In this document: positions 56,630 through 60,077 of the stretch, piece by piece | Layout: each line of letters starts with the position of its first letter | How positions within the stretch are numbered: position 1 is the stretch's first letter | From: an uncultured Elusimicrobia bacterium | GTDB taxonomy: Bacteria; Elusimicrobiota; Elusimicrobia; UBA1565; UBA9628 | Assembly (NCBI GenBank): GCA_964529095.1 | Contig: CAZGVK010000071.1 | Location: 3,607-67,606 of the forward strand | Direction of reading: 5' to 3' | Length of the DNA stretch: 64,000 nucleotides | Made by a program: the position numbers and the translations under genes | The notes under the pieces: generated by a model | Told to the model about the DNA's origin: nothing | What the model saw: the letters and a program-made list of their open reading frames with translations, nothing else | Databases searched by the model: none

Positions 56630-56704
56630 TGGTGGCGGGGGACAGGATCGAACTGTCGACACCCGGTTTTTCAGACCGGTGCTCTACCACTGAGCTACCC
56701 CGCC
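56630..56704 (-). tRNA. tRNA-Phe (anticodon GAA), CCA encoded
   Basis: The reverse complement reads GGCGGGGTAGCTCAGTGGTAGAGCACCGGTCTGAAAAACCGGGTGTCGACAGTTCGATCCTGTCCCCCGCCACCA, a canonical cloverleaf. Confidence 0.9.
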
Positions 56705-56804
56705 TATGCGGAGATAATATCAAATCACGCCTGACTTCTTGTTTGCGCCTCACCCCGACCAGGATGAAAACCAGACCTGACATGGCACACCCACTCGTCG
56801 AGAC
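56668..56804. repeat. 137-bp direct repeat, left copy (putative attL; spans tRNA-Phe 5' half, spacer and first 14 codons of the integrase)
   Basis: Identical, apart from a single G/A difference, to 59941..60077. Confidence 0.85.
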
Positions 56805-57927
56805 GCACAAGGACGCGGCGGTCGCCAACACGGTGCTGCGCTCCTTCGTCAACGGAACGCAGGCCGCGCTCGACATGAGTAAGAGGGTCATCGATGGTTC
56901 CTACGAGGTGGATTTCACCTACAATGGACAGCGCTACCGCGGTGCGCTGCCATGTGAGACCCTCATTGCCTTAATCTCCGGCCGTTCCACCGAGGACAAC
57001 ACCAAGAACCTCGGCCGCGAGGGCGCGGTGGCCTTCTCCCGGTTCGTAGACGAGTTCTTCATGCCGCTTAATTCGCGGGTCAACAAGAAGCCGTCCGCCC
57101 ACTACGCCGACGTTTGCTCCGTCGTGGCGCTCAAGGCCTTTTTCGGCGACACGCCCCTGCACGAGGTCACCAAGACACTGCGCGAGGAGTTCAAGCAGAA
57201 GCGTCTGTCGGGCAAGCTGTACCCGAGCGGCCGGAAGTGCGCCAACAACACGGTCAACCGTGAGTTGTCCTGCCTTAGCCAAGTCCTCGTGTATGCCGTC
57301 CAAGTGGACTATCTCAAGGAGAATCCCCTGGAGGGTCTCAAACGCCTGCCGACGGTCCACCGCGACATGTTCTGGTTGACCAAGGAACAGTTCGACGGCC
57401 AACTCGTTCCCGAGGCGATCGCCTACGAGGCCGGGCGTTATCGCGACATGGTCGAGTTCGCCGCCTATACCGGCGCCCGTCGCAACGAAGTCCTGCTCTT
57501 CCACAAGGACCACCTAGACTGGACTCGCGGCGAAATCCGTCTCGCGACCCTCAAAAAGCGTCGCCATGCCAAGGCCGAGCGCTTCCTGTCAATCAAGGAC
57601 ATCGGCCCGCGCCTGGAGGGCCTCTTGCAGCGGATGAAGCCGCATCCGGTGACGGGCTTTTTCTTCGCGACCCGGGAGGGCAAGCCGATCAATGATCATT
57701 ACGTCAATAAGGTCTTCAATATCCTGCGCCGCAAGGCGGGTCTGGACCAGTTTCGCTTTCATGATTTGCGCCACACCTTCGCCATGCACCGCGTCATGAC
57801 GCGCGTCACTTTTCGACAACTTCAAATCGAGCTGGGGCACTCCTCGCCGCAATCCGTCCAGGCCTGCCTGGACCAGGCGAATCGATTCAACCCCCAAGAT
57901 TCCATCTTCTTCCGCGCGGAATCATAG
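56764..57927 (+). CDS. int: Tyrosine-type site-specific integrase
   Basis: C-terminal catalytic region with HDLRHTFAM (R...HxxR) and the downstream Y region. It lies adjacent to tRNA-Phe. The start is placed at MKTRPDM. Confidence 0.85.
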   Translation: MKTRPDMAHPLVETHKDAAVANTVLRSFVNGTQAALDMSKRVIDGSYEVDFTYNGQRYRGALPCETLIALISGRSTEDNTKNLGREGAVAFSRFVDEFFMPLNSRVNKKPSAHYADVCSVVALKAFFGDTPLHEVTKTLREEFKQKRLSGKLYPSGRKCANNTVNRELSCLSQVLVYAVQVDYLKENPLEGLKRLPTVHRDMFWLTKEQFDGQLVPEAIAYEAGRYRDMVEFAAYTGARRNEVLLFHKDHLDWTRGEIRLATLKKRRHAKAERFLSIKDIGPRLEGLLQRMKPHPVTGFFFATREGKPINDHYVNKVFNILRRKAGLDQFRFHDLRHTFAMHRVMTRVTFRQLQIELGHSSPQSVQACLDQANRFNPQDSIFFRAES

Positions 57928-57963
57928 CTGATCAAGCCCCTGTATGATTGAGAGTCGCCGGCC

Positions 57964-58028
57964 TTGACATGAATCTATTTACAATCTAAACTGTTACTAA
58001 ATTAGTAACTATAGACATAGTAAATAGT
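57964..58028 (+). promoter_or_regulatory. Putative abiE promoter/operator: TTGACA-17-TAAACT with perfect palindrome TTACTAAATTAGTAA and TAGTAA direct repeats overlapping the start region
   Basis: TTGACA at 57964-57969, a 17-nt spacer, and a -10-like TAAACT. A 15-bp palindrome lies at 57994-58008. The region is AT-rich in a GC-rich genome. Confidence 0.45.
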
Positions 58029-58850
58029 ATGACCAAAAGAAGCCTCTCGAAGACGGAAGCTGATCTCGTCCTCGCATGGGAATGGGACAAACGGCGCTTG
58101 GTTGACCTGAAGGATATCGTCAAGCGCCTGCGCTGCTCTCCCGGCTATGCGAGGAAGATCGCTTACGTACTTCAAAAGAAAGGGTGGCTGGAGGCCGTGG
58201 GTCACGGGCACTACCTCTTGATAGGCGCCGAGCGTGGTCCCAAAGGCATCCCGGAAATGAATCCTTACTTGGTGGCAGGGATTCTTCCCAAGCCTTATTT
58301 CCTTGCGTATCGCTTCGCCTGCGCGCATCACGGCCTTTTGACGCAGATTCCGCATGTGATCCACGTGGCCGTGCCGCAGCAGAAGCAGCCGATGGAGCTC
58401 AAGAACATCCGCTTCGAGTTCATCGCTCTTTCTAAGAAGCGCTTCTTCGGCTTTCAAGAGGCGACCGTCATGGGGGAGAAAGTCAACGTCTCGAACTTCG
58501 AGCGGACGACCCTCGACGCCTTGGACCGTCCCGAGCTGGTGGGCGGCATCGAGTCCGCGGCTCAGGCGTTCTTCCTCGCCGGCAAGAAGCTGAACAACGG
58601 CAAACTCCTCAATTATCTACGGAAGTTCGATGATAGCGCGTTGGCCCGCCGAGTCGGGTATCTCGGCGACCTGCTTCGCCTCGAGCTCTCAAAGGACCTC
58701 AAAGCCTATCTCCGAACCCAAGTGTCCAGGAATCCCGCCTACCTCGGTTCGCCGAGCAGGTGGGGGAAGGATGGCGCGCATGACAAGAACTGGAATCTGA
58801 TCGTGAACGTGCCGAAAGAAGAATTGCTGGGCGAGGTGCGAATCGGATGA
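58029..58850 (+). CDS. abiEi: AbiEi-family antitoxin / transcriptional regulator (type IV TA, abortive infection)
   Basis: N-terminal wHTH IVKRL...ARKIAYVLQKKGWLEAVGHGHYLL is typical of AbiEi_4. 273 aa. It is translationally coupled (4-nt overlap) to the downstream AbiEii gene. Confidence 0.7.
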   Translation: MTKRSLSKTEADLVLAWEWDKRRLVDLKDIVKRLRCSPGYARKIAYVLQKKGWLEAVGHGHYLLIGAERGPKGIPEMNPYLVAGILPKPYFLAYRFACAHHGLLTQIPHVIHVAVPQQKQPMELKNIRFEFIALSKKRFFGFQEATVMGEKVNVSNFERTTLDALDRPELVGGIESAAQAFFLAGKKLNNGKLLNYLRKFDDSALARRVGYLGDLLRLELSKDLKAYLRTQVSRNPAYLGSPSRWGKDGAHDKNWNLIVNVPKEELLGEVRIG

Positions 58851-59713
58851 TCGAACAGAAATACGCGGACCTCTTCTCTGCGGGAGCGCAGGTCGGCTTG
58901 GACGTGGCCGAACGTGAGATCGTCCTCACCTACGTCCTCAAGATTCTAGATGACGCCGGACTCCTCAAGACACATGCCTTCAAAGGCGGGACGTGCCTGC
59001 GCAAGTGCATTTACGGCAAGGAAACGCGCTTTTCCGTAGACCTCGACTTCACGAGCATCAGCGATGAGAAGCCGGACGACGTGATCCTGGCCACGGTCGG
59101 CGCTTTCGGCAAGCCGGCCTACGGACTTTCTTTTGAGGTGGACACGGATGACTTCTACGTTTCCGAAGACAAGCTGTCCTGCGGGGCGAGCGTCCGTTAC
59201 AAACACGCCTGGAACGAGGGGCTCTTCAAGCTGGATATAAGCTTGCGCGAAGCTCCCTCCCTGCCGCTCGCGGCGTTGCCGCTCCAGCCTCAGCCCTACT
59301 TCAAGCAGTTGGAGTTCAAGCCCTTCGCGATCAAGAGCTTCCAATTCGAGGAACTCCTGGGCGAGAAGATCCGCGCCGCATCGCAGCGTGTCCGCTCAAG
59401 AGACCTCTACGACTTGGCCAAAGCTTCGCTCATCCGCGCTCTGGCCGTCATCAAGTGTTGGAACGTCAGAGACGCCTTCGATCCGGAGCGCTTCCTCGCG
59501 CGCCTGCGTTCCAGCAAATACGATTGGGAAGATCTTCGCCAACTCGTTCGCAAAAGCGAGAGGATCAATCCCGAAAATCTCATCTCGACCTGCGAGAAGA
59601 GATATCGATTTCTCCTGGCGCTTTCGGAAAACGAGAAGCGCTTGATCGCCGACGCTAAGCGGCATAATCTCAAGTCCCTGCCCCGGACATTACTAAAGGA
59701 GGCAGGAGCATGA
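58847..59713 (+). CDS. abiEii: AbiEii/AbiGii-family nucleotidyltransferase toxin (DUF1814)
   Basis: FKGGTCLRKCIYGKETRFSVDLDFTS matches the hallmark KGGTAL...RFSEDIDF NTase motif of AbiEii. Confidence 0.75.
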   Translation: MIEQKYADLFSAGAQVGLDVAEREIVLTYVLKILDDAGLLKTHAFKGGTCLRKCIYGKETRFSVDLDFTSISDEKPDDVILATVGAFGKPAYGLSFEVDTDDFYVSEDKLSCGASVRYKHAWNEGLFKLDISLREAPSLPLAALPLQPQPYFKQLEFKPFAIKSFQFEELLGEKIRAASQRVRSRDLYDLAKASLIRALAVIKCWNVRDAFDPERFLARLRSSKYDWEDLRQLVRKSERINPENLISTCEKRYRFLLALSENEKRLIADAKRHNLKSLPRTLLKEAGA

Positions 59714-59940
59714 GCAAGCGGCGGTTGACGCGGAGGGGAAGTCGTCGAGCAAGTCACCCCACCAGTGGAAGTACACGGCGAAGATTTTTCGCGTGGATTT
59801 AATTTGTCGAGATGTTTGTCGAGATGACGACAAAAACGCACATCCAACGACAAACTGCGACAAATCGCGATTTTCTGAAAGGGTCGAAAAACGCGGCGGA
59901 AGTCGCTTAAAGGCGGGATTTGGCGGGAGTGATATCCGTC

Positions 59941-60077
59941 TTTTCAGACCGGTACTCTACCACTGAGCTACCCCGCCTATGCGGAGATAATATCAAATCA
60001 CGCCTGACTTCTTGTTTGCGCCTCACCCCGACCAGGATGAAAACCAGACCTGACATGGCACACCCACTCGTCGAGAC
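59941..60077. repeat. 137-bp direct repeat, right copy (putative attR; partial tRNA-Phe 5' half plus integrase start remnant)
   Basis: Matches 56668..56804. It carries the remnant MKTRPDMAHPLVET followed by divergent sequence. Confidence 0.85.

Follow-up and report, generated by a model that had tools for sequence, protein, structure and literature searches.

An int–abiE segment at tRNA-Phe of an uncultured Elusimicrobia bacterium reads as a probable remnant of an integrative and conjugative element

When a tyrosine integrase gene adjoins a tRNA gene and lies with two defence genes between near-perfect direct repeats, is the whole a self-contained mobile island or the remainder of something larger? 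This question is raised by a locus in a 64,000-nt stretch of contig CAZGVK010000071.1 from an uncultured Elusimicrobia bacterium (the whole stretch is hereafter called the window), in which int, abiEi, and abiEii are bounded by 137-nt repeats carrying part of tRNA-Phe. The original prediction took this unit for a tRNA-targeting islet of about 3.3 kb with a type IV toxin-antitoxin/abortive-infection (TA/Abi) module as its cargo. Sequence comparison leads us to favor, with moderate confidence, another reading: the unit is an immobilized, stranded remnant of the int/cargo end of an Elusimicrobiota integrative and conjugative element (ICE), which recombined in the anticodon loop of tRNA-Phe and carried AbiE as cargo. 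The locus calls for caution, in that an integrase beside a tRNA gene with neat repeats mimics a textbook mini-island, yet its details point to a relic.

The tRNA-Phe(GAA) gene (56630-56704, minus strand) was called intact by ARAGORN and scored 73 bits with Rfam, and its minimum-free-energy fold is a perfect cloverleaf. Its 5' end points toward the element and its 3' end faces alaS (54005-56599, minus strand) across a gap of 30 nt. The left direct repeat (56668-56804) consists of tRNA positions 1-38 (56668-56704) and 100 nt of upstream DNA (56705-56804). The right repeat (59941-60077) begins with the anticodon loop/core (59941-59947), continues through the tRNA 5' part to 59977, and closes with the 100 nt of upstream DNA (59978-60077), at the end of which stands GTCGAGAC. 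The copies differ at a single position (G at 56681, A at 59954); repeat search extended the match to 147 nt at 97%, the next 10 nt being partly similar, and a 37-nt repeat probe found no match in 100 shuffles. In each copy the tRNA sequence comprises the acceptor 5' strand, the D arm, the anticodon-stem 5' strand, and the entire anticodon loop, and repeat identity ends immediately past the last base of the loop. Direct repeats holding part of the target tRNA, as expected for an active tRNA-targeting element, are thus present, and they hold its 5' half, which is the reverse of the usual layout. The ARAGORN call and the Pfam Phage_integrase match of int bear out the predicted neighborhood of integrase and tRNA-Phe, and the predicted 137-bp repeats around int, abiEi, and abiEii were confirmed. 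In the upstream part of the left repeat, TGaTATTAT (56714-56722, minus strand) is a candidate extended -10 element.

The right junction was compared with those of four related elements (L003, L004, L005, and L006) in a five-way att alignment. An int-proximal att arm was located at 59803-59881 (plus strand) by this alignment, blastn, and motif counting: TGTCGAGAT stands at 59805 and 59817, followed by CAAAA/CAAACT/ACAAA motifs. The arrangement TGTCGAGAT-N3-TGTCGAGAT (59805-59825 in the window) followed by CAAAA/CAAACT motifs is common to all five sequences, and the motifs are presumed arm-type Int binding sites. About 120-135 nt past the arm, all five carry the core string TTT[T/A]CAGACC[G/A]GT, which on the opposite strand reads as a tRNA anticodon stem-loop: that of tRNA-Phe(GAA) in the window and L006, and that of tRNA-Tyr(GTA) in L003-L005. 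Over positions 22-42, tRNA-Phe and the tRNA-Tyr of L004 and L005 share 95% identity. Because the arm motifs and the anticodon-loop core are shared with relatives at tRNA-Phe and tRNA-Tyr, the right junction (59803-59977) is, by this alignment, a genuine site-specific att junction, which supports the predicted origin of the unit from a tRNA-targeting integrative element.

The tRNA copy at this junction is crippled. Next to the repeat lies a degenerate, element-supplied tRNA 3' part (59912-59940, minus strand; GACGG ATATCAC TCCCGCC A), which keeps the anticodon-stem and acceptor complements and lacks the T arm. The right tRNA copy reached only 32.8 bits with Rfam (59921-59977) vs. 73 for the left one, and does not fold into a cloverleaf. 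Three relatives share the int-proximal defect: L006 scored 28.2 bits, L003 gave no tRNA hit, and no tRNA was found at this junction of L128, a full ICE at tRNA-Phe. A complete tRNA-Tyr, the canonical layout, is found at the int-proximal junction of L004 and L005. A functional tRNA at the left and a nonfunctional 5' fragment at the right, as in L006, correspond to the topology of reverse-orientation elements.

An element-specific att arm was found on the inner side of the right repeat only; its place at the left is taken by an internal fragment of a trbI/virB10-like gene (56797-56874, plus strand; 78 nt, about 26 codons), identified by blastn, tblastn, and the junction sequences. With blastn, 56797-56879 (83 nt) is 96% identical to positions 9401-9483 of the relative L001, within an open reading frame (ORF) for a 226-aa TrbI, and is thus closer to L001 than int is (80%). 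In a tblastn search of the window with TrbI of L127, 28 codons matched at this fragment and nowhere else. The fragment is joined to the left repeat via the 8-nt microhomology GTCGAGAC (56797-56804) and to the start of int via ATGAG (56875-56879). Across the first joint, the left copy reads CCCACTCGTCGAGAC followed by GCACAAGG and runs on as trbI, the right copy at the same point reads CCCACTCGTCGAGAC followed by AGCACATAACGC, and trbI of L001 and L025 reads AAAGTCGAGAC followed by GCACAAGG. Because the trbI fragment is fused at an 8-nt microhomology, the inner edge of the left repeat is, from the joined sequences, an illegitimate-recombination scar rather than an att arm; judged in the same way, both left-side joints are microhomology-type illegitimate junctions. 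The 100-nt upstream segments of the two repeat copies are identical and end at the scar, and they may be duplicated host DNA rather than an element-borne sequence.

At the second joint, ATGAG, a further deletion has removed the 3' part of trbI together with the gene for an excisionase-like (xis-like) helix-turn-helix (HTH) protein, which has 110-119 aa in relatives, so that the window unit has no excisionase gene of this kind. A search of the 64-kb window for ICE genes found none other than the trbI fragment. Of the type IV secretion system (T4SS) gene set that characterizes an ICE, only the TrbI-matching codons are left, and the unit is therefore ICE-derived and not itself an ICE. Two other interpretations of this region were rejected. 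A conserved RNA between repeat and int was ruled out (the 83-nt stretch is a trbI coding fragment and Rfam was negative), and GTCGAGAC in the upstream segment found no support as an arm-type site of the family, being absent from the far arm of L006, with its 7-mer common in the window.

The integrase gene (int, 56875-57927, plus strand) is a full-length ORF for a 350-aa tyrosine recombinase with Pfam matches to Phage_integrase (3e-20) and Phage_int_SAM_5. We place its start at ATG 56875, 71 nt past the left repeat, because the homologues (345-365 aa) cover just 91% of a 381-aa ORF; the long ORF at 56629-57927 is misleading. A start at ATG 56782, inside the repeat, was ruled out, as the homologues begin at the residue encoded by 56875. 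Int is 95% identical to the homologue P0001 and 80-85% identical to ICE integrases from other Elusimicrobiota, and all close homologues are from Elusimicrobiota metagenome-assembled genomes (MAGs). A phage origin was ruled out: a scan of viral contigs gave generic integrases only, at 33% identity or less, with no close relative among them.

Residue 331 of this protein is Cys (codon TGC, 57865-57867, plus strand), as seen in the alignment column and the DNA alignment, and is Tyr in 30 of 30 aligned relatives (TAC in L025). It lies 9 residues past the invariant LGH. In tyrosine recombinases, the spacing from LGH to Tyr marks the nucleophilic tyrosine (lambda Int H333/Y342; XerD LGH...Y), and by this spacing we take residue 331 to be the catalytic position. 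The other catalytic boxes (R202, the HDLRH box, and LGH) are kept. The catalytic set of an active tRNA-targeting element, which includes the nucleophilic Tyr, is thus incomplete here, and the window integrase is probably dead through the loss of this residue. Autonomous excision of the unit accordingly appears unlikely from its sequence.

The relatives of the integrase (59-95% identity) show what the remainder of the element may have been. In 8 of 9 sequenced int-upstream regions, int is the last in the order T4SS cluster, trbI, xis-like gene, int; only L006 departs from this, a 7.4-kb element that has int and a xis-like gene but no T4SS genes. The relatives carry TrbC, SSB, VirB4/TraC, VirB8, TrbL, and TrbI. 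In L001, from CP096137.1, the order is SSB, a VirB4/TraC-like ATPase, weak TrbL and VirB8 matches, TrbI, a 115-aa HTH_17 xis-like protein, and int, and this type of order is repeated in L018, L019, L020, L127, L128, and L129. The xis-like HTH gene stands upstream of int in all of these as well as in L006 and L025. The closest case is L025 (Int 95% identical), in which trbI, xis, and int precede the start of the same abiEi; beginning with int, its nucleotide sequence is 95-99% identical to that of the window. This layout implies that AbiE is cargo in a variable slot between int and att of an ICE. The original prediction was therefore right in regarding the AbiE pair as cargo of an integrative element and in assigning the roughly 3.3-kb islet a tRNA-targeting origin; its view of a self-contained unit does not fit the trbI fragment, the lack of xis, and Cys331.

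The same slot is variously filled in other relatives: Wadjet-like genes (DUF2397, DUF2398, and SbcC-like) follow int in L018 (4653-14515), and Dnd-like sets (DUF4007, PAPS_reduct, DndB, and Aminotran_5) in L020 (2079-11991) and L127 (11154-21056). Two ORFs after int in L001 (11035-15620) appear JetD/JetC-like from their sequences, and L128 has no cargo after int. A 1254-aa protein and a transglutaminase-like gene were also seen in int-att slots of relatives. From this content the slot looks like a defence hotspot, and the comparison outlines an undescribed group of Elusimicrobiota ICEs with variable defence cargo (AbiE, Wadjet-like, or Dnd-like) between int and att. Both ends of an element with flanking repeats were found within 10 kb only in L006, where a copy of tRNA positions 1-48 is int-proximal and the full tRNA-Phe stands at the far end. 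Elusimicrobiota is a phylum known almost solely from metagenomes, and the more interesting lead is at the level of this family: an undescribed ICE group with a defence slot and an apparently reverse-orientation integration into tRNA-Phe.

The remnant could have arisen as follows. The parental ICE would be of the rare reverse-orientation type, in which the att site provides the 5' part of the tRNA and the junction near int is left with a crippled copy. Host DNA lying 100 nt upstream of the tRNA would then have recombined with trbI by way of microhomology, through unequal exchange or template switching; everything between the upstream region and trbI would thereby have been doubled, giving the 137-nt duplication. 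Once a complete ICE copy had excised, the left tRNA would be intact again and the int-abiE end stranded. An aberrant excision of the lambda-dgal kind with homologous re-integration could give the same product. A second small deletion would have removed xis. Such a relic would be lost only through homologous recombination between the 137-nt repeats and not by self-excision, and AbiE, as a toxin-antitoxin pair, may penalize this loss.

Several observations weigh against this history or leave parts of it loose. The repeats differ at only 1 of 137 nt, which may indicate either a young event or homogenized copies. Y331C comes down to one A-to-G substitution in a sequence assembled from a metagenome, and might thus be a variant of the assembly or of the population. 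General decay of int is not seen, since its ORF is intact and 9 window-specific stand against 6 L025-specific substitutions, so any inactivation of Int would be recent or possibly an assembly variant; for lack of a surplus of window-specific substitutions, relaxed selection on int was ruled out. Compared by BLASTP with the 295-aa homologue P0221 (95% identity), and likewise with most 295-aa members of the family, the toxin AbiEii shows an in-frame deletion of 7 aa (DKPFKAP, codon about 194, near 59426) directly behind motif IV. The identity of the 100-nt upstream segments has no counterpart in L006, so that more than one path of duplication may be considered. Finally, no empty site was found among the nearest AlaS relatives (L021-L024; 76-81% identity), so that both the remnant path and the tandem array considered next may account for the layout. 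In these relatives tRNA-Phe is missing upstream of alaS and synteny is absent there, which makes the tRNA-Phe/alaS adjacency lineage-specific. Their alaS is preceded instead by a gene for a dienelactone hydrolase or for sigma-70, and the window contains none of these neighbors.

A tandem array is the alternative that survives best, although we regard it as rather unlikely. Here an internally deleted 3.3-kb unit would stand head-to-tail with a second element starting at 59941, 60078-64000 would be the far end of this second element, and the middle junction would effectively be attP. On this view the 100-nt upstream segment would belong to the element as an arm that bears its promoter, hence the identity of the copies, and Int and Xis of the neighbor could act in trans to excise the mini-element. 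The right junction indeed resembles a complete attP in having arm motifs, a core, a tRNA-like 5' part, and a degenerate 3' part. The end of the upstream segment, GTCGAGAC, contains the arm-motif core and lies about as far from the core at the anticodon loop as the arm sites do, but GTCGAGA occurs 23 times in the window, so that this occurrence may be due to chance, and no such motif is present in the far arm of L006. That arrays can re-use tRNA att sites is well known (discussed in PMC6563490), and the right-hand region resembles mobile DNA (DUF3800, truncated HATPase_c_4, and an IS110 fragment). However, 60078-64000 has no similarity to the locus of any relative, not even to the far end of L006; what it contains is truncated genes, not ICE functions, and T4SS genes are absent throughout the window.

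Still less probable is an autonomous tRNA-targeting islet of 3.3 kb that inserted itself, has the 137-bp repeats as its att sites, and can still excise; we give it little credence. The intact int ORF beside the tRNA, the near-perfect flanking repeats with tRNA sequence, and the small 7.4-kb element of the same topology in L006 all speak for such an islet. Its catalytic Tyr is, however, replaced by Cys, and it lacks the xis-like gene present in every relative with sequenced upstream DNA. Moreover, the inner edge of its left repeat is an internal trbI fragment at a microhomology joint, and the 95%-identical int with abiEi belongs to a larger trbI-xis-int unit. A generic local duplication of the promoter and 5' region of tRNA-Phe, unrelated to site-specific recombination and merely enclosing int-abiE, which had been named beforehand as an outcome that would overturn the predicted islet, is hardly credible: the repeat does include 100 nt of non-tRNA upstream DNA and ends on one side at a microhomology junction, but its other end coincides exactly with the 3' edge of the anticodon loop, and the conserved family arm follows with the spacing seen at tRNA-Phe and tRNA-Tyr in the relatives, arm and core alike being conserved in the five-way alignment.

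Within the favored reading of a stranded ICE end, the polarity of integration deserves attention. A classification of integrase crossover sites by sublocation in the tRNA gene, the anticodon loop among them, was reportedly given by Williams in 2002, a work cited in PMC1635311 and PMC6563490. The window unit resembles the anticodon-loop class of tRNA-targeting ICEs and islands in its tyrosine recombinase beside the tRNA, the core at the anticodon stem-loop, the repeated arm motifs, the direct repeats with tRNA sequence, and the accessory defence cargo. Unlike the usual members, which duplicate the 3' part of the tRNA, it has two copies of the 5' part and of DNA upstream; one of its repeat edges is illegitimate, and it lacks xis, transfer genes, and the catalytic Tyr of Int.

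Integrative elements that recombine at the 5'-distal portion of a tRNA gene are described as 'considerably less frequent' (PMC6563490, citing Zhao & Williams 2002, J Bacteriol 184:859). The window unit is like such reverse-orientation elements in that an intact tRNA is built from a 5'-part copy inside the recombination junctions and the other junction is a 5' fragment joined to nonfunctional sequence; L006 has the same topology, and an int-proximal pseudo-tRNA is also found in L128 and L003. It differs from the elements described there in that its upstream 100 nt are the same in both copies and abut the trbI scar, the 5' copy being perhaps duplicated host DNA, in that the element side keeps a vestigial tRNA 3' part, and in that the sister elements L004 and L005 keep a complete tRNA at that junction. 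Several elements of the family appear to use this rare 5'-replacing integration, and if this is true, these members would be a natural system for studying the evolution of att-site polarity.

A bolder extension is possible, and we hold it only tentatively: the tRNA-Phe branch of the family would routinely integrate in the reverse orientation with the same int/arm/core geometry as L004 and L005, so that a switch between 3'- and 5'-replacing integration would be captured here, probably via an attP that once carried a whole tRNA, and the window unit could still be mobilizable in trans. If true, the internal 5' part with a group I intron in L006 means that integration might install an intron in the tRNA-Phe of the host. 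In L006 (JBDREN010000090.1, an Elusimicrobiota MAG), the tRNA-Phe at 894-1240 is split between positions 31/32 by a group I intron of about 265 nt; Rfam Intron_gpI gave 46.8 bits (E 7.8e-11), slightly below the gathering score, and ARAGORN misses the gene. The partial tRNA-Phe copy of L006 (8570-8618) is without the intron, which places the intron in the tRNA copy internal to the element.

The abiEi gene (58029-58850, plus strand) encodes a 273-aa antitoxin/repressor matched by PADLOC AbiEi (1.2e-56, residues 6-267) and Pfam AbiEi_1, and abiEii (58847-59713, plus strand) encodes a 288-aa toxin of the DUF1814 nucleotidyltransferase type matched by PADLOC (2e-59, residues 12-274) and Pfam AbiEii (1.3e-21). 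The genes overlap by 4 nt (ATGA), as in a bicistronic operon. By inspection, AbiEii has motifs I-IV as defined in PMC3985639 (G47-G48...R61...D65-L-D67; K174...R181; R185-D-L-Y-D189). Full-length HMM matches, overlap, and motifs together uphold the predicted type IV TA/Abi module. Exact look-ups of the AbiEi and AbiEii sequences of the window gave no match. A promoter-like site, TTGACA-17-TAAACT (57964-57992, plus strand), is overlapped by a 26-nt imperfect palindrome with the core GTTACTAAATTAGTAAC (57975-58000 and 58002-58027, plus strand). Thus a COG5340-type antitoxin is accompanied by repeats in the promoter, and the palindrome is a candidate AbiEi operator, by sequence, which would fit autorepression.

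AbiE systems are known as type IV TA/abortive-infection modules from Streptococcus agalactiae and Lactococcus (Dy et al. 2014, PMC3985639), with MenAT relatives (PMC7450476, PMC10435456, PMC11375011). In S. agalactiae, AbiEi autoregulates its operon (PMC3985639, PMC7319586) and abiEi-abiEii have overlapping stop and start codons (PMC3985639). AbiEii is a GTP-binding nucleotidyltransferase (PMC3985639), and its relatives modify tRNA acceptor ends (PMC7450476, PMC10435456). The window pair is like these systems in its bicistronic operon with a 4-nt overlap, its COG5340-type antitoxin, its DUF1814 toxin with motifs I-IV, and the inverted repeat over the promoter. It differs from S. agalactiae in having one long imperfect palindrome instead of two inverted repeats, and from AbiE systems in the 7-aa in-frame deletion beside motif IV of AbiEii. 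By analogy, AbiEi would repress the operon at the palindrome and neutralize AbiEii, and AbiEii, as a Pol-beta-type nucleotidyltransferase, would arrest growth and so abort phage infection. The AbiE pair looks intact in sequence and is probably the sole working part of the relic. Two ENA contigs of 1.5 kb (L045 and L046) carry a 95%-identical AbiE cassette followed by unrelated sequence without an att arm; the cassette thus moves between surroundings as a module.

Defective prophage and ICE remnants and aberrant excision products of the lambda-dgal type are textbook kinds of relic. The window unit is like them in keeping the integration module and cargo and losing the rest, in its illegitimate junctions, and in the flanking duplication of host DNA; it differs from them in its proposed parent, a conjugative element from an uncultured phylum, and in that its order of events is a reconstruction.

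Beyond the right repeat, 60078-64000 begins with about 500 nt of non-coding sequence and continues with a DUF3800 gene (60592-61350, minus strand), an unknown ORF of 216 aa (61447-62097), a HATPase_c_4 gene that is truncated (62415-62885, minus strand), and part of an IS110-family transposase gene (63356-63766, minus strand). The region has the look of decayed mobile DNA and may represent an island of greater age or else a second element's far end.

Other target tRNA genes were seen in the wider family. Family ICEs at tRNA-Tyr include L003 (13,700; 18360-21044), which keeps the tRNA-Tyr 5' part only, and L004 (11331-11415; 16875-19292), in which tRNA-Tyr is complete. As their site lies about 5 kb from the alaS 3' end, the alaS neighborhood repeatedly hosts such elements at different tRNAs. 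Among distant relatives, tRNA-Glu, Asp, Cys, or Tyr stands on the opposite strand in the canonical layout. Integrase relatives of about 40% identity have a tRNA-Ser on the same strand downstream of int, with its 5' end facing the element, at a distance of about 120-350 nt (L012, L014, L034, L035, and L038) or 1.0-1.7 kb (L029 and L030); in L043, with the last 54 int codons only, tRNA-Ser is about 5.2 kb away. From these positions and strands, the eight tRNA-Ser cases are a possible further reverse-orientation arrangement.

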